DNA of 64,000 nucleotides, from positions 6,307,612 through 6,371,611 of the forward strand of contig JASCQW010000119.1 of NCBI GenBank assembly GCA_030264375.1, written 5' to 3'. Origin of the DNA: Carcharhinus longimanus (taxonomy: Eukaryota). The position numbers and the translations under genes are program-made. The notes beneath the pieces were generated by a model, which made no database searches, was not told the DNA's origin, and saw only the letters and a list, made by a program, of their open reading frames with translations. Of the stretch, positions 20,796 through 63,067 are shown piece by piece. Position 1 is the first letter of the stretch. Each line of letters opens with the position of its first letter.

Positions 20796-21310
20796 CTAAA
20801 CCAGGGTTAAGGTGCCATCAGGGCTCGTGGTGACCCAGAGTTTGAAGACAGGGTAAACTTTGCCTGTGAGTTTGGCATTGAAGGTATGCACATGGGCTCC
20901 GTTCTCCGGGTTGTAGAAGGACACCCGTCCTTCCTTGTTGTCCACGTAGACCCCCAGTTTGCTCAGATGGGCCATCAAGACTGAAGTGCCCAGCGATCTT
21001 ACATTTTCCTTGTTGCCTTCGATGTTCCACATCATCAGGGCCCAGTAACTGTCCTTGGAAAACGGTCTGCTCCATCTGTTCATAGGTCGGACATTCTGGG
21101 AGACTCCTACGCTCCAGACTGTCCCTGGGCTGGCTGACACCTCCCAGTATTGCTTGCCAAGAGGAACACCGTCGCTTGCCCAGATTGTCCAACTGTCTGC
21201 AAATTGTAGCTCCTTGTTTGCTGCTGCTGTGTCATTCCAGCCGACGCTTTTGTTGTCTTTGCCAAAGGCGAACCGTGGATCAGCATTTTCATTATCGAAT
21301 ACAATCGGAA
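20796..21310 (-). CDS. Terminal exon encoding a complete B30.2 (PRY/SPRY) domain of a butyrophilin/TRIM-like protein
   Basis: Acceptor ctctctttgtttaccag, phase 1, 515 nt open to TAG: VPIVFDNENADPRF..GKQYWEV..WSVGV..YWAL..KLGVYVDNKEGRVSFYN..HVHTF..KVYPVF. Confidence 0.92.
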
Positions 21311-22183
21311 CTGGTAAACAAAGAGAGAAGAAAAGTAAGCATTGTATTCATGCAATTGTGCACAGTTCACAAATTAAATAATCAGCCCCTTTAAAGCAGC
21401 AGCAACAATGTGCAAAATTTCTGACGTACTTTGACCTGTCGCCTTTTGTTCTTTCCCCTGAATCATTGCTAAATTACAACGCATATACTTTATCCATAAA
21501 ATATCCAGTATAACTTTGCAAAATATTTCCAAATGTTCATCAAAGGAAGTGCAAGGAGATACAAATATCTCCATTGTTGTTGCTTTAGGAGCTCCAAATT
21601 GATAAAATTAACATTGCAAACATTTTCAAATATATTCGCTGCATTAAATACAACGATGTTTACATTAGCTGCATGGCTCTTTTTCCAATATAAGGAGCTT
21701 CCAATCATTAATAGTAACATCACATGCACATTTAAATGTTAATTGGAAAAATGATGCCCCACCTCCCACCCACCCCATACAGTACACAGCTCCACATTCT
21801 CCCGTCTGAGGCTCAAGCGGCTGGTGCTGCACCATATTTATGACAAAAAGTTGTTTCCGCCTCTGGAGCTTCACCCAGCTGGCTACTTTGTCTGATTGAC
21901 TCGTTCAAGGAATCTTCCCATCTCTACAAGTGCCTCTCGGAGACCATCAAAAAACCCCAGGAGGTTAAAAAAACTACACTTTGCAATTACTTCAAATTTT
22001 CCCTCACCTCTCGTCACGCGTTACGTTTCCACGAACTGCTGGAGTGACTCAGATATTACGAAATGGGGAAGGGTAGTCGATGATTGTGGAGTGATTGGAG
22101 ACATTTAGTAAAAGGGCGGTGTGGGGGTGGGGGGGGGGGGGGAGCGGGCTGCGGACAGTGAAGCAGAATTCATGATGGCTTAC

Positions 22184-22210
22184 CTTTATGCTTCGTTAGA
22201 ACTTTCCATT
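22184..22210 (-). CDS. 27-nt penultimate exon (EWKVLTKHK)
   Basis: tag|...AAG|gtaagc, phase 1/1. Resembles the short W-containing exon that precedes B30.2 in butyrophilins. Confidence 0.8.
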
Positions 22211-22374
22211 CTAGTAATAGTCATGTGGATAGCAGAGAAGGGAGGACAGTGAAACATCCCCAAAATCCATACTTATGACATCAGAGCTCTATTGCATTAA
22301 TACTCATCTGCCGGTAAGTGGAAATCGCTCTGTCATATTTAGGACTTAAGATCTTGAGCTTAATGGAGTTCAAA

Positions 22375-22650
22375 GAATCATAGAATCCCGACGGTGTCGA
22401 TAGATGTCATTCGGCCTATCGAACCGCACTGTTCACAATCCCACCCAGGCTCTATTTCTATAACGCCCCACATTTATCCTGCTAATTTCCCTGATACTAA
22501 GGGTTAATTTATCGTGGCCAATCAACCTAACCCGCATATATTTAGACTGTGGGAGGAAACCGGAGCACGCAGACACGGGGAAAACGTGCAATCTCTTCAC
22601 AGAAGTTACCCGAGGCGCAGTGAGGTAATAGTGCAAAACACTGTGCCACC
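22375..22650 (-). mobile_element. HE1-type tRNA/V-SINE
   Basis: atcatagaatc tail, ggccaatcaacctaacccgca core, and cactgtgccacc head on the reverse strand. Confidence 0.85.
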
Positions 22651-23429
22651 TTTCTGGGCTTTCGATTGAAAGGATACAAACTTTGACCAACCCCATACAG
22701 TGGAAACACTGAGGGAACGCTGTCTTTTAGTAAAATATTAAACCGAGGACCTTTTCAACCTGTCCTCGCGGATCTGCTAAGCGAGAGTGTAAAACATCCC
22801 TCAGAATATCACTGCCCAAAAAAATCTATAGGAGTTTTGATTAAAACCAACCGTCATCAAACAATGTCCTACCAAATAAACACAGCGGGCACAAATTGTC
22901 GGGGCAGAGAAAAATTAAGTACACCACTGATTGACCCATCATCAACTAAGCACAGTCCACTTGGAGTAATGATCTGGGTCAGGTTTCTGACTGCTTTTAT
23001 CCAAAAACCTGATGCAGTCTTGGCTTTTCCAGTATTGATCTCCACCTCCCATTTCCAAAATCAATGCTAATTGAACACCACTCGTGGGTAGGGNNNNNNN
23101 NNNNNNNNNNNNNNNNNNNNNNNNNNNNNNNNNNNNNNNNNCCGGGGGGTACGTGCTACTGATGGTATCATGACTAATTCCTCCGCTGCACTAGAACAAA
23201 ACGGATATCTCCTTCCATTGTCCCATAAGCTTCTGGATCCCAGGCAAAAAAAAGAGGTGGTGCCACCCCTATAACTAATGAAACTGAGTTTTTTGTTAAT
23301 TTAATTGTGCTGATTAATCATGAATTTATATTGAGGATACAGGTTCACCGGCCTTATATTCCAGGAACGGTGATTGAAGAAAAATATCCCTTTGCATTTT
23401 ATGTGACTATCCTTAATGTATTTACATGA

Positions 23430-25170
23430 CTAACCAGCACACATTTTTGTTATTTTACAGATTGATGAACATGTTGTGTATTTTCAAAATTATTGACAGT
23501 GGAGATTTTCTTAAAATATTCAGATATGGAAGTTGCTTTCATATTCATATATATGTGAGATGTGATTATGTAAATAGATCTGTGGAGGCTTTTTTAATCC
23601 ACAGTGATTAGTGGTCGATTTTCATATTTATGTCCATTGGAGATTCGCACCAGTTGCTTGCTCTGGGAATGTTTGTTCTGTTTGTTAGATATTATCGTTC
23701 ATGTAGATTGATTGAGAGATGTTGGGATGGATGCAGAAGATATTTTATGTGCTGACAAATAGGGGAAATGATTTCTTAATTTATGACAACGGAAATCTTT
23801 CCATGCTCATGCTTATCTACACCATATTCACACTGATGGAGATGAGAGGGGTTTTTGGATGTGACAGGTGTTTTCTGCACTGATAGATGGGGAAGATATT
23901 TCTCAGACTGATAGTTACGTGAGCTATTTCACACCAATAGGTGGAAGATCATTTTTCAAACTATTGAGTATTTCCCACGTTTTCATTATCATGCAATTTT
24001 CATCATGAAATATATGGGAAAAAATCAATTTAAAAGATATGGGAGATGTTGTTTCACGAATGGGAATGGGTGATAACTTCGTGTCAAAGGGTCGGGCTGA
24101 CATTTTATAATGATATATATTGGCTGCATTTGAGTGTTGATCGTAGTATGGAATGGCTTCATACTCCTGGATATGGGCGATTCTTTCATAATGATGGAGC
24201 TGGGCGATGCCTTTAATACTGTTGCATATGGGCAAAGTTTTCACACTGGTGGATATGGTACCCATTTTCACTCAGATGGATGGATTGCTAGTTAAGCAAA
24301 GTGTTTCCATGATGTTGGTCATGACGATGGAAATCCACAATTCTTTGCATTGATGGGCACTTGAGATGCTTTCATTCTCACGTGGGCCATATTTTCATGC
24401 TGATATATATGGCTAATTATTACATATTCATGGACAAAGACAATATTTCCATGCTGATGGATATGGGCGATGTTTTTTCTCTGACAGATATGGACGATTT
24501 TTACGTGATGATCTATATGAGGCATGTGCTCATACTGATTGTTATGTGGGATGCTTTCATATTGATGAATTAGGAGATTCGTTTACACTAATGCACCTGG
24601 GTTATACTAATGCACATGCAGAATTTCGTCACACTAATGGTCAAAGTATATATTTATTCCTGATGTTTATGACCATGTTTTCATACTAGTGGATGTGGCT
24701 GATGGTTTCACACGTCAATATGGGCGAAGTTCCCATGCTGACGGATATCAACATTGCTTTCATATCAATGAATGTACAACATTTTTCAACCTGATGGACA
24801 TAGGCGATGGTTTCATATTCATTGATACAGGCAATGCTTCCATGCAAATGTAAATGGCTGAATTGTTAAATCTCATATATAAGGAATATGATTCGATTTC
24901 GAAAGATCTGGGCCGTATTGTCATAAAGACTAAATTGATGAGGCTTTCATGATATTGGATATGGGTGGTGACTTCATTCGTAGAGAATGGGAAGAAGTTT
25001 TCATCCAAATTAACATGGTTAATATAATTCTACTGACATGTATGGACCACATCTTTGTATTGATGGATGTGGTCAAAGTTTGATGGACATGGGCAATCTT
25101 ACAACTGATAGATTGAGAAGAGTTTTCAGACTGATGAGTGTGGACATATTTTAAGCACGTCAATAAGCAC
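23430..25170. repeat. Decayed ~27-28-bp tandem array
   Basis: Recurrent unit resembling gatatgggcgatgttttcatactgatg, clearest at 24170-24290 and 24440-24560. Confidence 0.75.
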
Positions 25171-25774
25171 ATTTTTCGAGAGAGCCATAATGACTACACT
25201 TCGAAAACCCCATCATTTTTTGTCCTACTTCAGGAGACTTACTAGGCTTCATGAACCACATTTTAGAACTCCACACTCTTCGTCATTCAGCTTGTAGTAG
25301 CTGAACACATCAGAACAGAACAATCCAGATCACAGTTATCAAATTGTGTTGTTCCCAGATTGCGACTGAATTAGGTATAATTCAGATGTTAGACTGAAGT
25401 CGAGAGTACTCATAATTTGGCGTTTGGTTTTGAAATTCAAGAGTGGACCTTCTGACGATTATTAGATATAAATGTAATATTGGAGGGCCTGTTGCATGAG
25501 GTCTGCTGCGTTGAACAATGACACAAAGCGAGGAAACATCTTAAAATGGCAAATTAATGATATCCCAGCCTGAACAATATCCTCCACATAACCAAACGCT
25601 GCTTATTTTAAGGTTTGAAGCAGTCTATCTCCATGACTGAAAGGCAGTGGCACGTTATACCTGTAACCAAACGGAAAATTGTCGCACCTTTGGCGGGATC
25701 CACGCAACCTGTGTGGGAGTTAAGAAGAGAGTTATTGTTGTGATTGTGATTATAGTCGTCGGGCCAAATGTTAA

Positions 25775-26600
25775 GACCATAATACCTCGGAGCAAAAGTA
25801 GGTCATTCGGCCATTCATATCTGCTACAACATTCAATGATATCTTGGGAGAATTGAAATGTAATTTCCTAGTCCACTTTCCGACTTCAATTCAAGGGACA
25901 AATCCCTTGATTCCTTTACTGATAAAAATGCATTTACCTCAGCCCTTAGCAGGCTTACCAGCCCAGACACCACAGCCATCCGTGGTGAATAATTCAATAG
26001 ATTCAATATTCCTGCGATAATAAAATTCTTATCGTTTCTCTCAACGTAGGCGACACTTGACTGAGAATATGTCCTTGGAACATAAACAATACCGCAGTGG
26101 GAACCAACCTTCCCACATCTAAACTTTCAAGCATCCATGGAAATGCAATACATCTCAGACAAGTCATCTCCCAATCTTCTGTACTCGAGTGAATGGAGAA
26201 CAAACCTACTCAACGCCTTGAAAATCTATCTGCACCCAAGTTCACCTTGTGAACTTTGTCGAAACTGCCTTGAATATCAATATATATTTTGTTAGAAAAC
26301 GGAAGCACAGCTATTTGCAATATTTCAAGCGTGGCATAACAGGAGCTTTGTGTAGAAATGTGAGTCTCCTTGGAATGCGGACCTAATTCCCTTTGACATA
26401 ACGGCAAACATTCTATTTACTTTCATTTAGACTTTTTAAGACTGTCGGCTACGTTTTTGTTTTGCGTTTAATGCACAAAGATCCCCAAAAATATTTGTGT
26501 TGCATCTTTTTGCAGCCTTTTAATCAATTTCGATTATATTTACCTTCTTTGTTCTTCCTGCTACATTTCAAAATTGCACATTTGATACGTCATGTAGTTT
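25775..26600 (-). mobile_element. CR1 LINE 3' end
   Basis: ggagcaaaagtaggtcattcggcc 3' tail followed by the reverse-complemented ORF2 C-terminus. Confidence 0.7.
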
Positions 26601-27309
26601 CTGCCTACTTTTTGGTGACTNNNNNNNNNNNNNNNNNNNNNNNNNNNNNNNNNNNNNNNNNNNNNNNNNNNNNNNNNNNNNNNNNNNNNNNNNNNNNNNN
26701 NNNNNNNNNNNNNNNNNNNNGACTCACGTAACCTGTCTACATACAGTTTTAAATCCAACAATCAACGTTAGCCCTTGCCATCCCAATTTTTTAGAGACCA
26801 GAATCTTGCCAATATATATACAAATTTTTTCCCGCATCAGACCGGAGTAACCGTGTTTAGAATTCAGCATGATGACCCCAAAAAGCATATTTTTATTTTC
26901 CTTTGACACTTAGTAGATTGGTCAATCTTGTTCTTGAAAGCGATTATTGTTCTACCTCAAACAGTCGAATCCAAGATCAAGCACCGGTTTTATTTTATTA
27001 ATTATTAATTATTACAAGCCTTTTGTTTTGCTAAAGCTTCAAGATTAGTGCTTGGTGTTGGGACATTTCCTATTTTGTAGTGCCCTCTAATTAATAAGGA
27101 TTCTACAAAAGATGTTTGAGAAAAACTTGTTTTGCTTATGAAAGGTAAATAACTGGGGGTGTCGTTAATCAATTCCAAATGATTGTTAAACATAAATAAT
27201 GAACGTGGATGGTTTTGTGGCTTCTGATTTCCAATTGGAATATATATTGATTAGCGGATGATGGAAGTCACATGGAATGTTACCTTTTGTATAATTGACC
27301 CAATTCACA

Positions 27310-27510
27310 GAGTTACCGAGTAACAAACGGGTATTGGAGAACGGATGTATTGGTCCTGCAGAGAGCCAGAAAGAACCTGAGGCGCTGAAAGACCTCTTCT
27401 GCGAAGAGAGGGATAACTTTATCCATGTATTGGCCTGGAGATCAGGTAATAACATATTCGTCTGTGTTGGGGCGAAGCTTCCCAACATTAGACGCCCAGA
27501 GGAGATTGTA
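27310..27510 (+). mobile_element. Possible Gypsy integrase C-terminal fragment
   Basis: QRARKNLRR*...YWPGDQVI resembles ARENL...FQPGDQVL. Confidence 0.3.
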
Positions 27511-28049
27511 GATGCTCATTTGTGTCTTGCAGCATCTTATGTTGTCTGAATAATTTAATATTTTATTTATGGATGAACAGTTGACATATAAAAAAAATAA
27601 AAGAAGAATAAAAAGAAAAAAAAATGATATAAAAATATTAATTAATTATCGATTGTAACATTTTAACATTCACTTTCCGGATGTTTGACCAGGGAGTTAG
27701 ATTTTTTTTCTAATGACTGAACAGATTTGCTATAATACTTTTAGAATGTGTCGATGACAGTGGGATACAATGGCACCATCCATAAATTAATTATGCTTTG
27801 CGGCCTAGTACTATTCTGTACGCATGTTCGTAATTCTGTATAGTAAAATCTTCAAACTCGAAAGTGATAGCTCTTTTATTAGACAACATAAAATAGGATG
27901 TGCTTCCATCTGAGACACAGATAGGGTTCAGGTGGGAATTCTTGAATTTCAATGCCGGAGTAGACTTGAGAATTTAAAAGACGGGACCTTCCCTTTCTAT
28001 AACATAAACAGAGGGTTTTGAGTGAAAGTTGGAAGCAGATCAGTCTTAC

Positions 28050-28085
28050 CTTCATCACTTGCATCTTGAAGCTTACTCTCGAGTT
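28050..28085 (-). CDS. 36-nt micro-exon (ELESKLQDASDE)
   Basis: gtctgtgcctttcag|...GAAG|gtaaga, phase 1/1, open. Confidence 0.8.
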
Positions 28086-29489
28086 CTGAAAGGCACAGAC
28101 GTTAATGTTGCGTATTAACTGCAAGGCTTCCCCCTGTTCATGTTCATGAACTTCCAAACTTTATTCCCACTGTATCTATTTTCAGATACAAGGTGCAGCA
28201 GAACTGTGCAGGTCGTACAGCCATCGCAAATTTGGTGCTCAGTGAATCAAGGTAATAGAAAGATAAAGTGATGGAAATACTCAATGATCATGCAAGCTTT
28301 TCCTCATATATGGACATTGGTTATTTGCCCGCAGATGCTGCCAGATCTGCTAACCATTTCCGGATGAATTGTTGATATTTACAATTTGAACTATCCACCA
28401 TCTCTATGTCTTATATTCATGTCTGATATCTAACCCATTGTCATCAGTGCAAGGCTTTCCCCTGTTCCTAACCCATTGTCATCAGTGCAACAAAACAATC
28501 AGCTATAAGAATGTGTAAACTAAAGCTCAACTAATCGCTTCTTGTTGATCATTTTGAATTTGGAATTGTTGGGATGAAGGCTGATCTTTGTGTCTCCACG
28601 TGTCATTGGGAGTTGTATGTTTACTTCCCCGTCTATTCTATGAGGGCTTTATCAGTTTCAGATTCAGAAAACTGTGCATTCGTGTACGATTACATAGCTT
28701 AAGTACTAAACCCTTTGACTGTCTCTGCTGCTCAATGATTATTGAATTTTCGGATATGAAATCGTTCATTGCTGTTTTTGTTTAATCCATGCTCCCACTG
28801 CAGGAAATACCTGTTATTCCTGAATATGTCAGGGTGGTGGTTGGGGGGGGGGGGGGGATCTAAGCGCGTTAATAATGAATATTTTTACCTCAACAAAAAT
28901 CGTTAAGTGGAATTAAATCAAAATACATTGAAATATTCATCCACATGGTAGAGAGCAATTTGGACAGGATATGCCAAAAGATTGTCACGCTGTACGCTAA
29001 GATTTGCCTGAAGCAAAGGGAGCTGGTGACCCCCAGGTAGTAGAAAAGAGCCAAGCAACCAATGCATCCTGTGACCATTTCCCTGCCAAAAAAAAAATCA
29101 TCGCTTAGGATATTGTTGAAAGGAGTGATCTCGCAGTGGATAAAGGTTGCAGACAAATCTGAAGCACCACGGCTGTTTCTCCTGCAGAGTAGAGGATAAA
29201 AACGTACCAACATGAAATAGCATAGGGAATTCAATTATAATGAGAATAGACGGGCGTTTCTGTGGCCGCAAAGGAGACTCCAGTTTGGTATGTTGCCCCC
29301 TTTCTCCACGGAACCCACCTCATCACCAGTTCCAACCCCCCAATCCCCGCCCCCCTGTACACCCCACCTGTGCTCAGGTTATGGATTTCTCAGAGTGGTT
29401 ACGGGGTATTCTGGAGGTGGAGGTGAGCAACGACTGGTCCTGGCATATATCAGTACAGATAGCACAAATTAAAAAATAAAAGAAGTGAT

Positions 29490-32420
29490 CTTAAAAACCC
29501 AGTTGGGAAGAGAGTTGAGAGGTCAGAACCCAATGATAGAGATCGCAGGATTACGACCAGGGTCACGTGATAATTAAATTAGAAATTGTAGGACATGTCG
29601 GATGAAGAGATGGTATGAAGTGGAGGAGACCAAATTTCTGTGACTTTGGGACTGGTTCTGGTGGACTTGGGAATACTGCAATCTGGGCAGATTACACGTG
29701 GTCAGGACCAGGTCTGAGGTCCTCAGGGTCGTATTTCAAAGTATGATTGAGAACGAGTTAACTTAAAATGGCAACAGTTTGGGAACCTGTGCCAGGAATC
29801 AATCGAGGGAGAATCAAGGACAAACATCAAAGTCAGAAAGAGAAAGAAAAACAGTAAAAGCAGAGAAACTAAGGTCCAAGTCAAACGGGACCTCAGTGAA
29901 AATAATGGGAATAGGACCAATAATTTAAATAACGTTCTCCCTGAAGGCTTTGTGCGTTAATGCACGTAATTATTATAATACAATGGATGGATGAACAGGT
30001 ATGTGTAGTCGGGATTTGGGGCATGTGGCTATAGGGTGACCAAGGATGGAAACTGATCATGCAGGTATATTTAGAAATTAAAAAGAAAACGAGGCCTGGT
30101 TGCACTGCTGCTTGAGGATGAATTTAATACCATACTAAGGAAGAGTATTACTTCCAAAGAATGTGGAACTTATATGGTAGTGCTATGAAGCACCAAAGAT
30201 CAAAAGTGTTGGTGAGTATTGTACACCAACTCCCAAGCTGCCGTTGTGAAGCTGGTGATGACTTTAAACGGGAAATTAGAGATGCATGCGCAGAATCAGT
30301 ATCTGAAGTTATGGGTTCTTTTAATCTGTATATACATTGTGCAAAACAAAATAATAACACTACTATAGGCGAGGAATTCCTGCAGTGTATACATGATAGT
30401 TTTCTGGACCAATAAGTTGGGGAACATGCAATACAAGACTTGGCATTATGTAATGAGAGATGAAAGGTTGGCAATCTACTTACGCAAGACCCTTTTAAGA
30501 ATGAACAATCATTAGATGATGGATTTTTTTTTAATGAAGATGCATTGTGATTTTGAGACAAAACTATAGGATGGTAATAAAGGAATTTATGATGATGTAA
30601 GGTGCGAGTTGGCTATAATGGTTTTGGAAACGTTACTTAAAACTACCGCGATGGATACACAATGGCAAACATTCAAACAGCTTGTGGGTGAACTAAAACA
30701 ATTCTTTATTCCTGCCTGTCACAAAAGTCAAAGCGGAAAAGTAGCCAAAACATCGTTATAGTTCGCATTGTATCCGAGGAAGAGGAATTATAGTTGGTGA
30801 AGAAAGATCGACAGACCTGAGTATTGGGAACAGTTTGGAATTCAGCAAAGGAGGACAAAAGGAATGATTATAAAATGAGAAAAAAAAGTACAGAGCAAGC
30901 TTGCAGGAAAAGTAAAAAAAAACTGACCATGAAATTTCCTATAGGTATTTGAAGAAAATAACAAGATTGTTCAAGATTGATGAATTCATACAATGAGAAA
31001 TACGAGATTTTACATGGCGAAATATTAACGGATGGCCATCTGAATGCATACTTTGGTTCTGTCTTCACAATGGAGGTCACAAAAAAGATACCAGAAATGT
31101 TGGGAACCACGGGGCTTCATTGAATGGGAGAAACTGTAGGAGATTAATATTCGTCAAGAAATGGTGAAGAATAAACTGATGGGGCTGAAGCCCTATAGAC
31201 TGCCAAGGCCTGCTAAGCTACGGCTGAGAGTAAGTAACGAAATAGCCCCAAAAATCTCTAGATGCATTTGTGGTCATTTTTACGTTTTTCTATACACTGT
31301 GGAACAGATCCTAAAGATTATAAGTTAGCCAATGTAACCTCACTATTTTAGAAGTTAGGCAAGATAAAAAATAAGGAATTATAAACCAGTAAGACTGACG
31401 AAGTAATCGAAAAATAACTAGAATCGATTATCAAAGATTTTTTTCCAAAATACATGAAAGACAATGGTAGAATTGGACAGAGTTGGCATGAANNNNNNNN
31501 NNNNNNNNNNNNNNNNNNNNNNNNNNNNNNNNNNNNNNNNNNNNNNNNNNNNNNNNNNNNNNNNNNNNNNNNNNNNNNNNNNNNNNNNNNNNNNNNNNNN
31601 NNNNNNNNNNNNNNNNNNNNNNNNNNNNNNNNNNNNNNNNNNNNNNNNNNNNNNNNNNNNNNNNNNNNNNNNNNNNNNNNNNNNNNNNNNNNNNNNNNNN
31701 NNNNNNNNNNNNNNNNNNNNNNNNNNNNNNNNNNNNNNNNNNNNNNNNNNNNNNNNNNNNNNNNNNNNNNNNNNNNNNNNNNNNNNNNNNNNNNNNNNNN
31801 NNNNNNNNNNNNNNNNNNNNNNNNNNNNNNNNNNNNNNNNNNNNNNNNNNNNNNNNNNNNNNNNNNNNNNNNNNNNNNNNNNNNNNNNNNNNNNNNNNNN
31901 NNNNNNNTAATATTTCCACATTTTCAGACTGAGTTGGGTGCTGGATGGAAGGGTGAGCTTTGAGAAGGATACAGAGAAACCTCAAGTGTAATTTGTTCTT
32001 TGAGTGAACAAATTGAATGCAGTTGCAGCACAATTTGAATAAATGTAAGGTCACTCTCCTCGGTAGTTAAAACTGTTTGAACAATTACTATCCAAATGCC
32101 CAAAATTGGGAGAGAGGAAATTGAATGAAGCATGCCTTTGTGCATTAGTCACTGAAGGTAAGAATGCATGTGCAGCAGGCAGTGAAATAAAATGCAAATG
32201 CTATGCGAGTCTACACAGGATTAAGAGAGGAGTTAAAATATCAGAAATGATTAAAATAATTCAAAAACCTATGGAACTTCATATCATTATGACAAATTTT
32301 GAAATTTAACAAACATTATATTGATTTGTTAGGGCCTACGGGATTGTTAAACAATAATTATGTATTTTGCACACTGCTGGATTCCAGTTACACCTTATTC
32401 ACGAAGGAATCATCTTTTCA
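29490..32420 (+). mobile_element. Long CR1 LINE relic (end of ORF1, APE, RT, with gap)
   Basis: VMGSFN..GEEFLQCIHDSFLDQ; LNAYFGSVFT; ANVTSLF..NYKPV; C-terminal RT after the gap. Many stops. Confidence 0.85.
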
Positions 32421-32857: not shown

Positions 32858-32884
32858 CCAGGAGTCTGGAACGGGCGTTAACTG
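32858..32884 (-). CDS. 27-nt micro-exon (xVNARSRLL) with NAGNAG acceptor
   Basis: ttactttttttctattgatgtccatctcag|CAG...TGG|gtaagt, phase 1/1. Confidence 0.75.
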
Positions 32885-36763: not shown

Positions 36764-38699
36764 CGTTTGTTTTCAAATAAACCTGATAAACTTTAACCTG
36801 GTGTTGTGAGTATTCTTATCGTGGACTGTGCCAACTAGTGTATCGCCATGCCGCCTGGTTATATGAGCATCAATTAGGAGTGAGAACATTGAATCAAAGG
36901 ATAAAGATCATTAACGTGTCGACGACTGAAAATAATTATGAAAAGCAGCCATCACTCAAGTCAGGTAGTTCGAGTCCATTTTAGGAAACTCAAAATCAAT
37001 TCTGCTCAGTTGTGAACTCCTGAGCAATGGTTAATCCAAGAGCGGCTTTTTTCACGTTGTTGGACGCATCAAGTCCCACTGGATATCTGGACGTGAAACT
37101 GGGAAATTTCCCGTGTGCACTCTTCCACTGTGTGTCCGTGGACAATAAGTTAATAAAGGTCCCAAGTACCCATTCTCATATTGCCGCTGTTTCAAAATTC
37201 ACTCGGATAATACATCATTGAATGTACTTGCGTAACAGACGTTTTTCCAAGATGCTACTACATCAGCAAGCTCGTATTAGCACCCGACCCTCACACAACT
37301 CTGTGCGACTTCCAGGGTTTTTGTCCAGCAGCATTAATTGGATGGCGATATTATGCCAATCTTTGAATGGCTTGGAGGGCTACTTGGAGATGATTTTTTT
37401 CCCCCTAGGTACCTGGTGCTTTTGACCTCCTAGATACGAGTGCCCTGGGTTTGGACGGCATTGTCTAATACTGCCTGATGTCTTATTACCGTGCATTGTG
37501 CAGGTATGCACAGTTCTGTCATTGTGCACTGGTGACGGCAGTGAATATTTATGGATATGTTTCGAATCAAACGGCTAGCTTTCTCCTGGACTGTTTCGAG
37601 CTTATGGGTATCAACTTGGAGCTGCAGTCATCCATCCAATAACAGAACATTCCAGCAAATGCTTTGCAAATTGTGGACAGGCGTTTGGGTGTCAAAACGT
37701 GAGTTTTTGCAACAGTACTCAGCTTTGCTCTGGCATCGACAATAGATAAGTGGTTTATATAGTTAAGTTTCTTATTAATTGAAAGGACCAGGATTTTGAA
37801 ACGATTCGAATGTATAATAATCAGTACTTTGATGTTTAATGATGGAGCATGCTCGAGAAGCTGACTTGTTTGATCCTCTTCTTCACTTAACTCTGTGTTT
37901 TACTGATCATCTTAAACTAACCTTTATTGTTGCCCGCGTACTTCAGCTTCTGGAGTTCTAATGAAGAAACCACAGACAAATTACTAGGTGCCGGTGTACA
38001 GCAGATTAGATTAACTATTCTGTCTATACTTCACATAAAATTAAAGTTTAGTCTTTGAAAAAGAAATGCATCAGCCGTGTTTTGTTTAATTACCCAAGAT
38101 TGTTTCTTCCAAATCTTTTTCTAAAGGAGGAAGAACAAAATTTCATTCGACCTGCACTGTAAGTATTAATTATTTGCTCGTCGTGCGTGACAGCTAATCA
38201 AAAAAAAAACAAACAGAACTTGTAACCTGATGCAGGACCAAATTTGCTCAAAATATAAATTAGGTGTAACTTAAAGCTTTTTGAGCGTTTTTTGGTTATC
38301 TGAATGTCTTGGATAGATAGCCAGAGAAAAAAATATACAGATCTTGAACCCAAATGTCTTGATGAAAAACGTTTCGAACCCTCTGTAGTAGTCAGGGTGA
38401 TATACATGAGACAAAATTAGGGAACTACGTACATCTTTCTGATTTTCATGCAGATTGGGTAAAACATATTAAACACAGAAGCACATTCTCCACTCAATGT
38501 TAGAGTCATAGATTTCGATACCTCCACGTAGAGTGTTCTGGTGAATTAGTTAACATTTAGTGCACTGTACCCAGGTTTGTCCTCCATTTTACCCTGACAA
38601 ATCAATCCCTGGAATTTTAGAATACCTCACAACGTTCGCTATTTATATTATGTACAAATTGTGTCACCCAGACACGTAAGCTAGACTGGAGTCAGGTCA

Positions 38700-39516: not shown

Positions 39517-39543
39517 GGCACTTTGCATTGATGTTTTCAAGTT
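39517..39543 (-). CDS. 27-nt micro-exon (ELENINAKC)
   Basis: ttctacatgtag|...GCC|gtaagt, phase 1/1, open. Confidence 0.7.
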
Positions 39544-40788: not shown

Positions 40789-40815
40789 CAATCGTTTTTT
40801 GTCGTAACTGTTCCT
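40789..40815 (-). CDS. 27-nt micro-exon (EEQLRQKTI)
   Basis: cttcctactcttatag|...TTG|gtaaga, phase 1/1, open. Confidence 0.8.
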
Positions 40816-45160: not shown

Positions 45161-45196
45161 CCAATTCCTTCAACTTTTTCAAATATAATTCTCTCT
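45161..45196 (-). CDS. 36-nt micro-exon (ERELYLKKLKEL)
   Basis: ttttgatcgtctttcag|...TGG|gtgaga, phase 1/1, open. Confidence 0.8.
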
Positions 45197-47471: not shown

Positions 47472-47498
47472 CTTTCCCTTTCCTTTTCAGATCTTCCT
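47472..47498 (-). CDS. 27-nt micro-exon (EEDLKRKGK)
   Basis: ttccgtgttccgacag|...AAG|gtaagt, phase 1/1, open. Confidence 0.8.
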
Positions 47499-49050: not shown

Positions 49051-51349
49051 CAGTCCAGTAAAATCGNNNNNNNNNNNNNNNNNNNNNNNNNNNNNNNNNN
49101 NNNNNNNNNNNNNNNNNNNNNNNNNNNNNNNNNNNNNNNNNNNNNNNNNNNNNNNNNNNNNNNNNNNNNCTTCTTTTTCAGTATCCACGGTAATTTGCTA
49201 AACTGATCGATCGTCAGGAAATTTGCAAACAGGACATAATCAGTGTGCTTTGTTATTAAGGTTTCAATTCCATAAATCAGCCCAGCACACAGATGTATGC
49301 ATCATTAATGTTTATATTTGAGTGAGTGTATATTAACGCTATTTCCGTTGAGGAAAGAATGATTGTCTTTCTTCACAACAATGTTTCGTCAATGTAGCCA
49401 ACTTCACACAGATCACTGACCGCACAATGACCTAGTCGTAGTTTTTAGCTTGACATGACTGTTTCAAGTTCTCTCTTGAGTGGCTTTTGGACGGATTATG
49501 TGTGCCAATGTTTTTGATAAGAAACAATACGGCACTGGGGATAGGGGGACGGGGAGGGGGCTGCCGACATATTTTCTTTGGGTTCAGCAATGGCGTTATT
49601 GGAAAGGTGTGAACAGACTTGGAAGCAGACAGAATAGATTAAGTATTTTGGAGTGACAAGTGAGTTTAGATGTAGGATCGCAATTTCTGTCAGTTAGTGT
49701 TTTGCAGTTCTTCTGACAGGGGTGAGCTCAGTAGCAATAATTAACAGAAAACGTCACCTGAAGAGAAATAAAAGCAGTACATAGTAAAATATCACGAAAC
49801 ATGTGTCCCAAGAGTGGAAGGTGCAAGATTATCAATTTAACGTGAATTTAAGAGAGGAATTGGGAGGTGAGTTGCACAATGGGAACACAGATAGGCAGAT
49901 CGCTAATTGTCCCAAACTGAGCTTCCAAAGGCATTTTAAAATAACTCACATTGCTGTCGGTATTGTGTCACAGGGAGGGTAGACGAGGTAAGGCTCAGAG
50001 AATTCCCTGGTGTCTCCTGCAGACCAATACCTTGCCTGGTTAAAAGTTGAAACAAAAAAACTGGGAGGTCAATTGTTCCGTGCTTCATTATCTGTATCAA
50101 CGTCTCCACTCATCTGAGCCAACATACCAACCAATCAACATGGTTTACTTATGGATAAGAATTTTATTCCTTTGTTGCTGTTGGCAATTTCTGGAATGCA
50201 ACGCTGATCAAGAGAAGCTACAATTAGTAGCATTCACCTTTTCAGCAAAAGCTAAGCACACAGCCATTGTTTATTTTATGTTGCCTCTAATTTTACTGCT
50301 CTGCCTCTCAGTTGTATTGAAACCGCTCAAACATTGTTTTCAAGTTGTGCCCTGTAAGATGTCCAATCTTCTGCATTGTGCACTGTTTATTTCATCTTAG
50401 AATTTATCCTTTTCTTCTTAATTATATTCCGAAACACCCTCTAGTCCCTCAATTTCTCAGTTTTGGTCATTCTAATGTATTCATTGAAATCAACGTGTTC
50501 CCTTTACACGAATGTCACGCATTTGTTTTGTTGCATATTTGCTTACAATGCCTCCCTGCGGCTCATTTTATTTTTTTCTGAATGTTTTGCTTGGAAACTC
50601 CAGCTCCTCGGAACATTAACAAGGAGTGAGGCATCAGTGCTGCAATGAAGAAGTACTGCGTCATCAGAGGTATATTTTACGAACATTGAGTCGCCTCTAT
50701 TTCCTCTTCAGTAAATGTAAAGGATTAATCAGGATGGTTTTTGTTTTGAAATGTGGGGAAGGTGTTCTTGGTTTTTTGAGCCAAAATTTTCTCTCGAATA
50801 CACTGATTTCATACATTTTCAGTCAGGCCTCTTCTTGTTTTCTTTAATCAATGTGCACATCTACTATTTCTAAGACGGATACGCCAAAAATGTACACCTG
50901 TTTGCCACTTTGCATTCTGATAGAACCCGTATGTAACACCTCTGATAGACAGACTTCCTTTCTCAATCCCTTGAATAGATGAATCCATCATTTACATTCA
51001 TGAATTATTATTTGTACCAGTGTGGGTTAATGATCAATAATACACTTCTCACCTAAATCTTGAAGTTTCTTTTTCAATATTTCTGTTTCTGAAAAAAAAG
51101 TATGCAGAGTTGAGTATCTATTCGAATATAAATATACATATGTTTAATAGGGGGAACTATGGCTCTTTGGTCAGGTTTTGTAATTGATTAAAATAGTGCT
51201 AGAACGGTGTAAATCAACTCAACGTTCTGGCTCTTTCTGCAGAACCTTTTTGTTCCTTTCAGTCCAATAAAATCCATAAGCAGCGATCTGAAAGTACTGA
51301 ACATGTTTATCTCCCTGCCTCAGAAAATCCAGATTTCTAATCATCGCAC

Positions 51350-53194: not shown

Positions 53195-53500
53195 CACAGT
53201 GGCACATTGGTTAGCATTGGTGCCTCACAGCGCTAGAGATCAGGGTTCGATTCCCAGCCCGTGCCACTATTTGGGTAGAGTCTGCACATTCTCCCTGTCT
53301 CTGTGTAGGTTTCTTCGGTGTCTCTGTAGGTTTCCTCCGAGTGCTTTGGTTTCCTCCCACAGCCTGAATGAGGTGCCAGTTAGTTGCACTGGCGATGCTA
53401 AATTCTTCCTCGATGTAACCAAATGCTGCAGACTGGCGATCAGGGGGTTTCCACAATAACTTCATTGTAATGTTAATGTAAGCCTACATGTGAGCCGATA
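53195..53500 (+). mobile_element. tRNA/V-SINE with an alternative 3' tail
   Basis: cagtggcacattggttagcattggtgcctcacagc..gggttcgattcc head and cacaataacttcattg..taatgtaagcctac tail. Confidence 0.8.
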
Positions 53501-54056
53501 AGTTCACTTTGAAATGTGGTTGATGCTGTTTCTTCTTTTGTTCGCAAATCATAGTATTTTCTGCTTTGTTGCTGGCTGAAGTGGAACAACATTTTTTTTC
53601 CCCAGCACTAGCATTCACCTTTATTCCTGTTTGTTACCTCTGCACTCTGCTTCAATCCATCCCCTGACAATATTGACTGAATCCATCCCAATTCTCCAGT
53701 GCCGTTGTTTCAGCTAAACGCCGGCTAATCAGGTGATGTACGAGTTGGAACAGATCCTTCAGTCTCCAGTGACTGTGATGTCATGGTTCTTACCACGTTG
53801 CAGCTTCTCCACTTGTTCATCTGTAATAAAACAAGGACAAACATTTTGGATTAATAACAGCAACTTCTGGAAAAAGAACATCATGCCTAGTTTTATATGA
53901 CAAGATTGAAATATATATATAGCATTTTGTTGCACTTTCCTCAGAATTGGACAATATTACGATAACATTAGCGGAACCCAGGTCGCAGTGATAACCATCG
54001 ACGGTGGTATGCACTGAAATGCTAAAATAACAGGGAGCGGATTGTGAATTCACATT

Positions 54057-57480: not shown

Positions 57481-58415
57481 GGTGTCATGGGGAGCAGATC
57501 GTAGATAGAAGAGACTATTTGTGTTATCCTCTGCAATAACCTTAATATAAGGCAATAAATTATTTTAGTTTATGCCCGTGAAATACTAATGAACACAACT
57601 GATTCCTCTCACTTTGTAATTTGATGCAGTAGTCAACTTAGTATTTTATTTGTTAAACAGAAGTAAGGCTTACATTAACGCAACAATGGAGTTATTGTGA
57701 AAATCCCATAGTTGCCACAGCCCAGCGTCTGTTCAGGTCAATGCACCAAGTCGGTTTGTCTTTCATAATCGAAATACTTCAAAATTGACTAGAGTAAGAA
57801 TGAAGGAGAATCGGAATGAAACCTAAACATTCTAACATGACAAGTGGGATATGAGTGAAACTTTCTGCCCAGCTGGTGACATAATCGCAGCATAAGGGAA
57901 AGGCCATTTCAACTGAGATAAGGAGGAATTGCTTCACTCTGAAATTCACAATGGTAAAAAAAATGGAAATCGTTGCCATGGACAGTTGTGCAGTCTAAAT
58001 CATTGAGTACGTTCAGAACACAATTCAATGCGTGTCTGGATGCTAGTGAAACCAATGGCAATGGAATGGGGGCATGGGCATTTTTAAGCTAGATGCGCCA
58101 GTATTAACTATTCAAATTGTGGAACAACATTTGTTGGCGGAATAGCCTTCTCTTTGACATTTGATAAAATTTCCACTGAAATAAGTACAGAAGCATTTTA
58201 GTTCCCCTGTTCTTTCACCAGCTTCATACGTTGCCATAGTTTTGAAACCGCAAGATTGCCTATTTAAAAAATATCTCTTGAAAGTTTGCACATATGCGCG
58301 ATTTTAAGACACAACAGCGTGAATACTTATAGTAAGTTTCAGTTCATTTCGATAGTATTTTATGATTAACTCATAAAAATGTTTTAGACATCTGTTAGAA
58401 CATGAGCAGACTTAC

Positions 58416-58442
58416 CTTTGATTCCACCCTTCTTCTTTAGTT
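58416..58442 (-). CDS. 27-nt micro-exon (ELKKKGGIK)
   Basis: ttggatttag|...AAG|gtaagt, phase 1/1, open. Confidence 0.75.
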
Positions 58443-58630
58443 CTAAATCCAACATATAGAGTTAATGCAACAAGTTGCAATGTTGGTAAGTTTAATGGTT
58501 GCGACTGTGGCAAATTTAAACAATCTTCCTTCCTCAGGTATGGAAACTATGTAATATATTGACTCGGATTATGTGGGTTGAAAAAAAAAGTCTATTCGAG
58601 TAAGAATGATTCTTCAAGTGTGGACGTTAC

Positions 58631-58657
58631 CCATTCCCGGCAGGGCAGGTGACAGAT
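58631..58657 (-). CDS. 27-nt micro-exon (DLSPALPGM)
   Basis: ttttgttttagtttgtttcctgtaacag|...TGG|gtaacg, phase 1/1, open. Confidence 0.65.
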
Positions 58658-59229
58658 CTGTTACAGGAAACAAACTAAAACAAAATGCTTTTGTATATCT
58701 AATACTCAGCAAAGAAAGGGATATTTAAAAATAATAATCATGTGAATTCTTCCATCATCGTATCATCATACTGATCATTGGATGAATTCTGTGTTCAGTA
58801 TAAGAACAACACATATCAGTATAAAACAATAGTTTTGAAGGGATACAGAATCGGTTATGTAGACATGGATAAATAGAGAATGCAAAAACAACCTAGCGGC
58901 AAATGAAAAAGAGGAAACATTTAAGAAAACAATTCAAAGATGTTGAACAAAACATTTTACAATTAAAAAAAACGATCATTTTGATAAAAAGTTGCTTACT
59001 CAAGAATTAATTATATTGTAAACTTAACATTAGGCATTTCTAAAGATTGTTTTAGAAATAAGCCGGAGAAGAATGTACACTGGAGAAGAAATGAGCGAAG
59101 TTTAGTGCACGCCTTTAATGAAGATGAAATCAGAGTGAAATTGTTTTCAAGAATGCTGGTTGAACAGGAGAACATCCAGAATATAGGTGATGTCTCAAGG
59201 ACACTACACAAAAAAAAAGCTTCGGGGTT

Positions 59230-59835
59230 CGAGTAATCTTGAGCTGGCCATGTTCGTGATAACAGGGGCGGAGGAGAGGGGAGGAGGGGACAACGGCATA
59301 GGAGGTGGCGAGCATCGAGAGACCACCACTAGAGCAGCCACCCACCAGTCCTCAGGAAGGAGGGCAAAGGGCTGCTGTTGAGGACAGGGAGGTGGGTGAG
59401 CAGCCTCCCGGGAGGGTGCACAGAAGACAGAGGATGCCGAGGTCAAGGGATCACAAGCTCTACGCTTCCTACAAGGCCCTCTCAGAGCAGATGAGCCATC
59501 GCCAGGGGCGTCTGTCAAAGACCACAATGCATCACATTTGTGAGGTGCTCTCCACATGCAACTTCGGGGGTGCAGTGGCTGCCCTCTCCCTGTGGATGTG
59601 AAGGTGACGGAGCCTCAATTTATATTCCTCTCCGTCATTCCAGACTTCCAGTGGCAAACTAGCTGGGATCTCCCAGGCCTCCTTGCACAATGTATGTGGC
59701 AGGTCTCAGATACCCTGAAAGCCCGGATAGGACAGTTCATTAATTTCGTTGTAGGTCATGCACAGCAGGAAGTCCGGGCTCTTGGCTTCGCAACTGTCGC
59801 CGGGATGTGCAGGGCACAGTGGATGGGAGTTCCAC
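59230..59835 (+). mobile_element. Harbinger transposase (HARBI1-like) N-terminal relic
   Basis: SYKALSEQ..RLSKTTMHHICEVL; PLPVDVKVT; QVSDTL..FINF..QQEVRALGFATVAG, with frameshifts. Confidence 0.75.
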
Positions 59836-60215
59836 ACACATGAGAACAGCCTGAATCGGGATCTTGCGTTCAGCTCACACTATCTGTAACCCCCACGACC
59901 TATCTGGGCTTGAAAAATCTCACTAACTCTCCTGACTGGAGACAATACACATTTCTTTAAACTTTGCTTATCCCCTTCTCCATTCACATTGTCTCTACCT
60001 TTCAGTGTTGATTACCTGTAAAGATTCACATTGCAACCATAATTTTGCAAATTGAGTTTGTGTCTTTATATGCCCTGTTTGTGGACAGAACTTCCACTCA
60101 CTTGATGAAGGAGCATCGTTCTGAAAGCTTGTGGCTTGTGCTACCAAATAGGCCTGTTGGTCTTTAATCTGGTCTTATTGTGCTTACACCGGTCCAATAC
60201 CGGCACTTCTACATC
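59836..60215 (+). mobile_element. Penelope-like element 3' terminal repeat, with a decayed hammerhead motif at about 60094-60134
   Basis: Colinear by eye with 36450-36820 (cacacatgag..cgggatcttg..ggagacaatacac..ccactcacttgatgaaggagc..gaaagc). Confidence 0.8.
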
Positions 60216-60520
60216 AGGCACATTGGCAGGCGTAGGAGGCTGATGACCGACATTTTTTTATCACGTCGTGAAAATACCTGCTGGCCTTAAAATCCTGAAG
60301 ATATTCTTGAATGCATAGTTTATTTTTTTTTCTTGCCCAGCGGCAGGAAAATAACGACACACTGCCTCCCCCTGGTTTCTAAGGATTCACTTAAAAAGTC
60401 TCTAGCAATTGCAATTGAATATTTGGTTATGAAAATATTTCTGATGAGGAAAGGGAAAAGGAACGGTGCACACAAACAGAAAATTAATGTTGTCGAATTG
60501 AAATTCATTCGCTTCCTTAC

Positions 60521-60547
60521 CTTCTTGATCTGAGGTCATTTTTCGTT
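60521..60547 (-). CDS. 27-nt micro-exon (ERKMTSDQE)
   Basis: ttcataatcatcttag|...AAG|gtaagg, phase 1/1, open. Confidence 0.75.
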
Positions 60548-61219
60548 CTAAGATGATTATGAATAATACTTTAGATACATCAGTCTTTTTTGCAGCCTTT
60601 TTTTAAACAAAATACAACATTACTTTTTTACGAACAGAATCAAATTGACACCGTCTTTTTGCAATTATGTAGATCCCCAGACACTTTGTAAAATGTTTGC
60701 ATTCTAAAAAAAATGCTTCAACGATGAATGAAAGGGACACAGTCGCGATAATCTGTACAGAATACCTGTGATTGGGTCTGAGATAACTCAGGCCATTGTT
60801 CCCATAGGCCAGTAATTAATAGCTGTGTGTGTCGAGGGACCCAGTTCCGGTAAACGAACATGTTTGAGAGTTGTGAACTTGAAAGGAATGATGACAATTG
60901 TTTGGGGATAAGAACACGTTTGTATTCAGATGCCCATTTAAAAATCGATCCGTTGCTTTATCGGGAACAAGTGTAAGACAGCGACCGAGGGAAGATCTTT
61001 AAATAGAACTTGGTGCACGCTAAGCTTCGGGCCTTCTGGTTTAGATCGTAGAACATTACAGACCAAATAGGAGTTGTCATATTCAATTCTGGGATTGTAA
61101 AAAACGAAGAGACAATGTGCCTGAAACAAATGAATGGACACAGATTCCAAGGTCGACGATATGCGAATGGGAATGTCTTAACATTTGAACAAAATTATTC
61201 CAGTTAGCAGCTTCCTTAC

Positions 61220-61234
61220 TGGTTCTACACTGAG
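61220..61234 (-). CDS. Candidate 15-nt micro-exon (AQCRT)
   Basis: catcctttgtttgtatag|...CCA|gtaagg, phase 1/1. Confidence 0.3.
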
Positions 61235-61984
61235 CTATACAAACAAAGGATGGTTGATATTATTTAATCGACGTATCTTCAGAAAAGATATGTAAAGATT
61301 TTGCATATGAAGAGTGAGTTTTGAAATTGCGCATGGAGCAACCACAACTACGATCGGTGCAATGTTTGACAGAGACGGACGTAAAGGTATGTGGAAAGAT
61401 CATGCCTAATTTCCACGAAAGGTCAATAAGAAGAACCGAACCTAACGTTTTCTATGCAGTAACAACATGTCAATCTGCATGATGCATTCATTTTTCTGGA
61501 TAGGAAACCAAATGAAATGGTTCCACTGCCGTGTGCACCAATGCAATAGTGCGTGTTTTGCAAAATATACTTCCTTTCATCTTATTAAATACAGTTGGGT
61601 CACTAGAATATTTTACACTTAAGGAATAGTAACCCTGCCTCTTTTTTTCCATCAGTCCTCAAAATTGATTTTTTTAAGCTCCCCATTCGTATTTTTTTGT
61701 TCAGTGATGATGGCTGGAATATGAAATCGTCTACTGCTCAAACGCCGGCACTGTGGAGGCAAATTTGACACCGATATTGAGTTATTTTACTGATATGAGG
61801 TAACTAAACGCACTGGGATAAACTCAAAATAATTTAGCATGCAGCGTCGATATTGTCAATGTCCAATGTAAACACCTTTTTTCTTTGGGCCACAAGCCGT
61901 CAAAGTATTGCTGTGACAAAAACGTGAAATAATAATCAAAATATGAACCAATACGCAAGACGCTGAAGTGCTCCCCGTGCTCAC

Positions 61985-62020
61985 CAGAATCTTGAAGCTT
62001 CTTCCTCAGCTTTTCCAGTT
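61985..62020 (-). CDS. 36-nt micro-exon (ELEKLRKKLQDS)
   Basis: ttcccccataag|...CTG|gtgagc, phase 1/1. Shares AAGCTTCAAGAT with the 28050-28085 exon. Confidence 0.8.
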
Positions 62021-62328
62021 CTTATGGGGGAATGGCGGGTGGTTATGTTGGGGAGGAGGTGTTGATGTGGCGTGGGTGAGTGAACAAAAGACAAACGTTA
62101 ATATTTACGACTGCACATGGAAAATATTTTTCTCGATTCAACCAATGGTAATGCGGCAGAAAATTATCTCCACTGTAGCGCAAAGAGGCTGGTTTTGATT
62201 TCGTATCTGGCTGAACATCCTGCCCGAATATCTGTTCAATAATATTTAACGGATGGCCACGATTACAAGACATGATGTAACGATGCTCGAATACTAGCCT
62301 AAGGAAAGAACAAATTATTTATTTTTAC

Positions 62329-62355
62329 CTGTCACAACTTTATAGAGGCTGGTGT
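62329..62355 (-). CDS. Candidate 27-nt micro-exon (DTSLYKVVT)
   Basis: tag|...CAG|gtaaaa, phase 1/1, open, but the polypyrimidine tract is weak. Confidence 0.3.
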
Positions 62356-63040
62356 CTACCTGGTTACAGTCATCACCCAAGGTGACACTGTACAGAAGCC
62401 CACCCTTACCGTTATGAACCACAATATGTTCCCAATTTGGCAGCCACTTTAATATTCAATCTTAATCTATAAGCATGTGGAATGTCCTGTCTAGTGTCAA
62501 TGCAGGATCTACTGATAGTGCACATTACGGGAATTAAAGGAGCTGGAAAATGCTCAATTCTTCCAATTACTTTAGTTCAGCATTTATTTTCTCGCATAAA
62601 ACATATAAATCTAGTATTATCCTAAATTTTCGAGGGATTGCCTTTGGATCAACATACATGTTTCTTAGTGGGCCTTTATTTCATCCATGCAGACGCTCTT
62701 ATATTTCGTTGACGAAATATTTGCCACTAATAAATCAACAGATTTTCCATTTATGTGACAAATGTTCATTGATTTACTTCTATAATGATGTATTTCTTAT
62801 TGCACAGGAGAAAACATGTTCGAAAGTTCAAAGCCGTTCAAAGCCTTTTACACAAATATTTAGGTTTGTGGATATATTCCAGGACAATCACTTTGAAGGC
62901 GTGCAAAATGTATACAATTGGTTAAGGTGAAATGTGAAAGAGCAAACCAGTATCTGTGCACGCAATACAACACCAGCATGTAAATGAAAACGAAACATAA
63001 TTGCGAAAAAAGTTAGCTGATAAACGGTTGGTATAATTAC

Positions 63041-63067
63041 CTCTGTCTTTCTTGCCTATTTGTTGTT
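63041..63067 (-). CDS. 27-nt micro-exon (EQQIGKKDR)
   Basis: atattccttgtag|...GAG|gtaatt, phase 1/1, open. Confidence 0.7.

Follow-up and report, generated by a model that had tools for sequence, protein, structure and literature searches.

What kind of gene places a long row of exons of only 27 or 36 nucleotides (nt) in front of a B30.2 domain, how far does the row extend, and what protein does it encode? These questions are raised by a 64,000-nt stretch of the Carcharhinus longimanus genome (hereafter the window; assembly GCA_030264375.1, contig JASCQW010000119.1, here C119, positions 6,307,612-6,371,611), on the minus strand of which such exons lead to a terminal B30.2 exon. We refer to the gene of the window as gene A and to five related B30.2 genes on the same contig as paralogs B–F; positions above 64,000 are given on the window scale (C119 position minus 6,307,611). 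The window would represent the 3′ end of a gene of at least 850 kb, whose 160-plus phase-1 micro-exons are predicted to be joined, for the most part, as fixed head-tail pairs. The exons, their lengths, phase and order, their heptad periodicity, the coding constraint and the six paralogs can be read directly from the sequence, and gene A is very probably a real coding gene for a coiled-coil rod joined to B30.2.

Micro-exons and the terminal B30.2 exon of gene A

A preliminary description of the window had reported 12 micro-exons, all of which were recovered in window scans: each lies on the minus strand between AG and GT, is 27 or 36 nt long and open in phase 1, and their starts run from 63067 to 22210. 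The B30.2 exon described at the end of the row likewise holds up. Five or six exons had been missed (starts at 53820, 51088, 38120, 37957, 25708 and possibly 23677), so the joined peptide given there is incomplete, and one of the reported exons, at 58657, is weak. The features of the window are listed from the terminal exon upstream; "reported" and "new" refer to the preliminary description.

20796..21310, minus strand: terminal B30.2 (PRY-SPRY) exon with stop codon, reported; phase-1 acceptor at 21311/21310; Pfam SPRY 7e-12
22184..22210, minus strand: last stalk exon, 27 nt, reported; class score 16.6; recovered by the hold-out model
23651..23677, minus strand: possible 27-nt exon, new, uncertain; class score 15.3, weak generic acceptor (-5.6)
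25688..25708, minus strand: 21-nt (one-heptad) exon, new; from splice scan and class score
28050..28085, minus strand: 36-nt head exon, reported; class score 24.5
32858..32884, minus strand: 27-nt exon, reported; class score 13.5
37922..37957, minus strand: 36-nt head exon, new; class score 25.9
38094..38120, minus strand: 27-nt tail exon, new; class score 25.8
39517..39543, minus strand: 27-nt head-type exon, reported; class score 26.5
40789..40815, minus strand: 27-nt tail exon, reported; class score 27.4
45161..45196, minus strand: 36-nt head exon, reported; class score 27.1
47472..47498, minus strand: 27-nt tail exon, reported; class score 31.4
51053..51088, minus strand: 36-nt head exon, new; class score 41.3
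53794..53820, minus strand: 27-nt tail exon, new; class score 21.9
58416..58442, minus strand: 27-nt head-type exon, reported; class score 25.0
58631..58657, minus strand: 27-nt exon, reported, weak; AG/GT present, class score 4.1, missed by the hold-out model
60521..60547, minus strand: 27-nt tail exon, reported; class score 21.5
61985..62020, minus strand: 36-nt head exon, reported; class score 31.7; near-identical peptide in paralog B
63041..63067, minus strand: 27-nt tail exon, reported; class score 28.8; the array continues past the window edge

The terminal exon lies within the open reading frame (ORF) at 20796-21347. Its matches among solved structures are B30.2 chains of TRIM58, BTN3A and TRIM7, and a fold search with a low-confidence model of the gene A B30.2 (predicted local distance difference test, pLDDT, 57.5) returned PRYSPRY structures. 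The proteins closest to gene A come from bamboo shark, catshark and skate. Paralogs C and F, and likewise the skate model, have a Trp-led exon like that at 22184..22210 before B30.2, and the peptide of 25688..25708 has a near-identical counterpart at the same place in paralog C. Since 17 of the 18 window micro-exons end in G and most start with AA, AG or AT, most junction codons specify Glu or Asp; over the whole of gene A, Glu accounts for 93 and Asp for 26 of 164 junction codons.

Segments of 27 or 36 nt were not equally common on the plus strand, the comparison that the preliminary description had proposed. With a generic splice score, the minus strand of the window yielded eight of 27 nt and four of 36 nt, as opposed to zero and one on the plus strand and about 1.0 for each other length. 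A hold-out model, trained without a frame filter on 54 seeds from paralogs C–F only, gave 18 sense matches (17 positions) versus 3 antisense in the window, and 153 versus 8 over the whole of gene A.

Successive 200-kb scans followed the 27- and 36-nt exons to position 741,010, beyond which a sparser stretch of 21-nt exons reaches 875,004; the array thus extends at least 810 kb past the window. The final exon model comprises, at a score of at least 15, 166 exons and 1,657 codons with zero open antisense matches, and, at a score of at least 12, 179 sense versus 6 antisense exons. Ten of the 166 exons are 21 nt long and the remainder 27 or 36 nt; one is an isolated match at 949 kb, and the median intron is 3.0 kb. 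As ~13% of the 27/36-nt tract reads N, these exon counts are lower bounds.

Reads of four runs over window positions 20300-31400 cover the introns continuously and contain no exon-to-exon joint; they are DNA-like and uninformative on expression. Two segments of the window (22,100-22,900 and 30,700-31,400) carry a very high-copy interspersed repeat, with read depth up to 186,000, which we take to resemble an elasmobranch SINE (short interspersed element). Some 20 kb downstream of the B30.2 exon, two short splice-flanked segments of 18 and 39 nt at 676-776 on the minus strand may be chance or part of a neighbouring gene.

Register, coding constraint and paralogs

The exon classes differ in their hydrophobic positions. 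The 36-nt class is hydrophobic at positions 2, 5, 9 and partly 12 (79, 85, 80 and 43%), the 27-nt tail class at a single site, position 4 (86%), and the 27-nt head class at positions 2 and 5, as in the 21-nt class. Neighbour pairs comprise 60 of 36-to-tail, 57 of tail-to-36, 25 of tail-to-head and 18 of head-to-tail type, and 36-to-36 neighbours were seen 8 times where 28.3 of 209 were expected (p 4e-10). The 36+27-nt pair encodes 12+9 = 21 residues, or three heptads; the 27+27-nt pair, with 9+9 = 18 residues, would correspond to a 7+11 repeat and the 21-nt exon to a single heptad. In its native order, the 165-exon tract has a 3.5-residue periodicity of 0.524, compared with 0.272 +/- 0.031 in order shuffles (z 8.0, above all 200), and 75% of its junctions keep a spacing of 7 or 11, compared with 50% (maximum 61%) in shuffles. 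The rule-breaking junctions tend to have longer introns (6-11 kb versus 1-3 kb), as expected if exons were missed there, and probably stem from such missed exons. A single-sequence fold of the skate model has a helical stalk, at a poor pLDDT of 45.

This grammar bears on the earlier proposal that any subset of exons could be skipped. The frame would indeed be kept, and only 117 of 15,576 ordered exon pairs would create a stop codon, but the head-tail order keeps the register and single skips would break the coil. Because neither 9 nor 12 residues make whole heptads, skipping one exon would shift the register by two residues, which renders free combinatorial tuning unlikely even though every exon is symmetric. 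Any length tuning would possibly go by exon pairs; the tally of 97 out of 97 single skips that disrupt the register, and of 76 out of 76 pair skips that preserve it, is built into the class definitions and adds no independent evidence. The gene itself may have grown through duplication of register-preserving units.

Over the pooled loci, sense and antisense counts were 74:8 at 27 nt, 76:8 at 36 nt and 31:12 at 21 nt, versus 5-14 sense and 4-13 antisense at six other lengths. The phase-1 frame was open in 148 of 155 sense candidates picked by splice score alone (the other frames in 59 and 71) and in 8 of 16 antisense candidates. Third codon positions have the lower information content in every exon class. 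Matched exons of A and B are 72, 78 and 54% identical by codon position, with flanks at 28%, in pairs whose choice by protein similarity biases identity toward codon positions 1 and 2. Just 443 of 193,057 bases form a collinear alignment, and exon order is partly collinear over ~700 kb while introns no longer align: the best A matches of the sampled B exons are collinear (Spearman -0.50, n=43, p 6e-4), and of the 37 best matches other than anchors, 18 lie no more than 30 kb from where collinearity would put them, versus ~8% by chance.

Five further B30.2 exons of the family lie on C119, at 8.53 (+), 9.02 (+), 9.09 (-), 10.68 (+) and 11.29 Mb (+). These paralogs, B–F, lie within 5 Mb, and all have the exon classes of gene A upstream on the correct strand; in total, 320 exons score at least 15 in the 1.63 Mb modelled. 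Gene B starts head-to-head with gene A near ~7.277 Mb and has plus-strand exons in 15 of 20 sampled 10-kb pieces up to 8.45 Mb, which extrapolates, from 36 exons in 177 kb sampled, to roughly 230 exons over 1.25 Mb. The arrays of C and F start near 8.598 and 10.734 Mb, and B/C and E/F are tandem pairs, each on one strand. We also weighed, and rejected, an assembly inversion that would have split a single gene into the A and B arrays: the array on the plus strand reaches its own B30.2 exon and is collinear with A.

In a 38-row tree, the six domains group with the shark and skate proteins and one copy from C81 in a 100/100 clade with a long stem. The BTN and TRIM rows fall outside this clade, and the tree does not resolve their backbone. 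The C81 copy (94,266,552-94,267,061; L166) is a B30.2 exon sister to the C119 family inside a BTN/TRIM-rich region, and a candidate link to the origin of the family; there was no micro-exon match in the 10 kb covered around it, a third of which is N. More widely, C81 carries a dense cluster of canonical B30.2 exons at ~85-102 Mb, with BTN-type IgV and IgC exons near 100.3-100.5 Mb.

Related proteins in public databases conform to this layout in part. The catshark model P0008 is predicted to contain three paralog D exons in order followed by B30.2, and the skate model P0004 a coiled coil and SPRY only. Both carry automatic names (TRIM39-like, TRIM69-like), which appear to follow the SPRY match only. 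Public models of the family are short (295 and 358 amino acids), and the 5′ parts of P0001, P0004 and P0008 look like intron sequence read into the exon that follows, be it a micro-exon or that of B30.2; this artefact recurs in the annotation of the family and can pass for a signal peptide. A single-sequence search for longer homologues returned none among 585 candidates; a profile search found 31 homologues among 8,000 scored, one of them within the family. A cartilaginous-fish gene that joins a micro-exon coiled coil to B30.2 by phase-1 exons of butyrophilin/BG style, as the preliminary description envisaged, is supported.

The 5′ end and the nature of the protein

That description also expected the immunoglobulin (Ig) and transmembrane part, or a RING/B-box part, just past position 64000. 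The array instead continues to ~875,000, and searches of 1.81 Mb of called bases (2.02 Mb in total) with Pfam, tblastn and our own hidden Markov models (HMMs) did not reveal any Ig, RING or B-box exon. Pfam was applied to ORFs ahead of the A array, between genes A and B and flanking C and F. These searches, which took in 78, 62, 150 of 177, 36 of 113 and 25 of 86 listed ORFs, with the final two sets restricted to 5′ flanks, gave an env fragment, a reverse transcriptase fragment and sub-threshold noise only; boundary-spanning ORFs were covered by the tblastn and HMM searches. Outside B30.2, 29 BTN/TRIM N-terminal queries reached a best E of 0.051 in tblastn, and three HMMs built from BTN/TRIM N-terminal parts reached 0.099 over 48,852 segments (RING/B-box, 0.88). 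A control search of the whole genome, made with another tool and with a chimaera BTN as query, located the IgV and IgC exons on C81 at 1e-23 to 1e-30. Bases read as N make up 13.7% of the A/B interval and 2 and 5% of the flanks of C and F, respectively, and short N runs may conceal longer gaps; the sequence covered excludes C119 8.73-8.95, 9.15-10.63 and 10.84-11.24 Mb and most of 7.47-8.47 Mb. Gene A probably lacks Ig, RING and B-box parts.

Several by-products of these searches may be recorded. The env fragment lies between genes A and B (L089:2214-2585, minus strand; Pfam TLV_coat 2.3e-9), and a diverged copy of its surroundings lies upstream of gene F, near C119:10,686,700-10,688,700. V-set exons on C119 at 1.15, 1.33, 2.16, 3.34 and 3.63 Mb, at least 2.7 Mb downstream of gene A, are apparently unrelated to it. 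An Ig-like regular-expression match near 815 kb was rejected, as it had no Pfam match. Hydropathy scans for a transmembrane exon gave only weakly spliced candidates at background level.

Gene A may be best read, tentatively, as a giant micro-exon gene for a secreted, disulfide-stapled coiled-coil rod with a B30.2 tip. One transcript per locus would yield a parallel coiled-coil rod of ~1,700 residues ending in B30.2. Coiled coils rise by 0.15 nm per residue, and a rod of ~250 nm would act as a spacer or fibre that keeps the ligand-binding B30.2 heads at a defined distance. Butyrophilin modules are all phase 1; the gene is likely to have originated from a butyrophilin-type gene that lost its Ig and membrane exons, its signal exon then being spliced straight to the stalk. 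Given the lack of Ig, RING and B-box parts, the balance tips slightly toward a secreted rather than a cytosolic protein, and export would likely be as a disulfide-stapled oligomer. Cys makes up 2.5% of the rod and is ten times as frequent in the core (62 of 984 positions) as elsewhere (13 of 2,058), which suits interchain disulfides but also plain core packing. The skate model starts with a hydrophobic, signal-like 17-mer, which only 1 of 59 intron read-ins equals in hydrophobicity, although 13 of the 59 pass a lower threshold. In paralog C, a candidate ATG exon with a hydrophobic end, a phase-1 donor and a TATA-like box upstream lies 9 kb ahead of the array; it matches only itself in the genome.

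A number of observations weigh against this reading. No convincing first coding or signal exon emerged for gene A in the signal-exon search, nor for gene B, and an anchored comparison of four 5′ flanks did not find a common 5′ exon, its top pairs being mainly repeat-like. Intron read-in ahead of a micro-exon frequently resembles a signal peptide, so the N-terminus of the skate model may be an artefact of prediction. N-glycosylation motifs show no enrichment (4 versus 7.3 +/- 2.5), the B30.2 domain of gene A has zero Cys, and the N fraction of the A/B 5′ interval (13.7%) belongs here as well. On the side of the array, a quarter of neighbouring junctions break the 7/11 register, the anchors for A/B collinearity were chosen by eye, collinearity of the 36-nt class alone is non-significant (n=17, p 0.22), and exon-level alignment of A beats within-class shuffles in only one of seven paralog regions. 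Finally, the tree does not separate a BTN from a TRIM origin.

The same gene and rod could be cytosolic, translation starting in or just before the array, and serve as a soluble scaffold on the cytoskeleton or in trafficking, like the chicken BG-tail zipper protein or enterophilin. The sequon count and the missing signal exon speak for this version, as do in-frame Met codons at the start of two arrays, in the first exon of that of paralog C and in the first strong exon of that of paralog F, and, in the sections drawn on here, the B30.2 of butyrophilins is cytosolic (PMC6790196) and zipper protein is a soluble BG tail acting on actin-myosin (PMC4046983). The abundance of Cys at core positions and the signal-like skate N-terminus argue against it, and we regard it as rather unlikely. 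It is improbable that, as the preliminary description had it, gene A encodes a membrane-bound immune receptor of butyrophilin/BG type, in which one or more Ig domains and a transmembrane segment would be followed by an exceptionally long stalk in the cytoplasm and by B30.2; its 5′ exons would then lie in unread or misassembled sequence. Short phase-1 exons before B30.2 are the BTN arrangement in the excerpts of PMC6790196, the run of 21-nt exons on the 5′ side repeats the BG unit, N bases occupy part of the A/B interval, and C and F could be the downstream halves of B and E, the D-E interval lying outside the sequence covered. However, neither the A/B interval nor the low-N flanks of C and F gave an Ig match, canonical BTN genes sit on C81, and an Atlas cluster of 137 long coiled-coil and SPRY proteins (representative of 1,579 amino acids), none of them with Ig, RING or B-box, remains when all clusters with these domains are taken out; at a score of 0.84, this cluster is no more than a lead.

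Distinctly less probable still are real coding exons divided among several shorter transcripts per locus, through internal promoters, alternative B30.2 terminal exons or heavy block skipping. The shortness of the public models, the tandem arrangement of B/C and E/F on one strand and the extreme splicing task posed by 160-230 micro-exons over 850 kb to 1.25 Mb would fit such a division, but A/B order is conserved over ~700 kb, no second B30.2 exon occurs inside the A array (133 of 133 candidates scored), and the short public models carry the intron-like read-in at their 5′ ends. As for chance splice-like sequence or a decayed repeat, the brevity of single exons and the weakness of that at 58657 are outweighed by the tests of strand, length, frame, order, codon position and cross-species occurrence, and only 2 of 165 exons have a within-gene match of at least 80%; we consider this explanation extremely unlikely.

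In its widest form, the secreted-rod reading would comprise a 5-Mb cartilaginous-fish cluster of six giant genes (up to 1.25 Mb, with up to at least 200 micro-exons) for secreted, disulfide-stapled, B30.2-tipped rods of 250-350 nm, in which a two-exon code (12+9, 9+9) sets length and supercoil and splicing in register-preserving pairs tunes the rods. Taken as a whole, this remains doubtful. If true, it would add extracellular fibres or spacers of a new class, with a butyrophilin tail as their source, encoded by some of the most exon-rich vertebrate genes, and, if secreted, a candidate shark-specific structural or defence material. With coding exons of no more than 21-36 nt each, this multi-megabase family appears to escape standard annotation, the public models keeping the last few exons under TRIM names. 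The encoding of register across exon pairs would also offer a direct test of whether splicing respects protein geometry.

Comparison with known systems

In the sections of PMC6790196 and PMC8813856 on which we draw, butyrophilins have a few short phase-1 heptad exons directly before a single-exon B30.2, and PMC12841164 places butyrophilins in cartilaginous fish in the part used here. Gene A resembles them in its C-terminal B30.2 and in the short phase-1 heptad exons before it, but has at least 160 such exons rather than a few, and IgV and IgC exons were not found at its loci, where the candidates for a transmembrane exon were only weakly spliced. Compared with a chimaera BTN, the B30.2 domains of paralogs E and F are only 31-35% identical, whereas the C81 copies reach the mid-60s. 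The BTN/BG membership proposed in the preliminary description is not supported: canonical butyrophilin Ig and B30.2 exons lie on C81, the gene A B30.2 falls in a separate, long-stemmed clade, and, as no Ig, RING or B-box exon was found in the 1.81 Mb, gene A as assembled would on present evidence be neither a butyrophilin nor a BG nor a TRIM member.

Chicken BG genes have 13-36 exons of 21 (sometimes 24) nt together with IgV and transmembrane parts, and no B30.2 in the sections drawn on here (PMC4046983, PMC8813856). Like them and zipper protein, gene A derives a long coiled coil from many tiny exons, belongs to a multigene cluster and includes a run of 21-nt exons. It differs in its main unit, the 36+27-nt pair, in having about five times more exons, in the presence of B30.2 and in that no IgV was found. 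It would also bear on how the heptad tails of BTN and BG originated, as an independent, five-fold larger expansion with different exon units, apparently without an Ig head. TRIM-B30.2 proteins likewise place a coiled coil before B30.2; unlike in these, RING and B-box were not found in the public models or at the loci of gene A.

The guinea pig enterophilins, which are cytosolic and mammalian, combine an extended heptad region of ~45 heptads with B30.2, without Ig. Their architecture is that of gene A, and the likeness is one of architecture only: the ~235 heptad-equivalents of gene A come from exons of 9 and 12 residues, compared with the ~45 heptads of enterophilin. Enterophilin-1 is a partner of SNX1, according to the part of PMC13749957 used here. 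A literature search returned no title or abstract start describing the family of gene A, most subscription journals being outside its coverage, so that this is not proof of novelty. Set beside these systems, what is new in gene A appears to be an extreme-scale version of the theme of heptad exons and B30.2, with a two-exon register code of its own.

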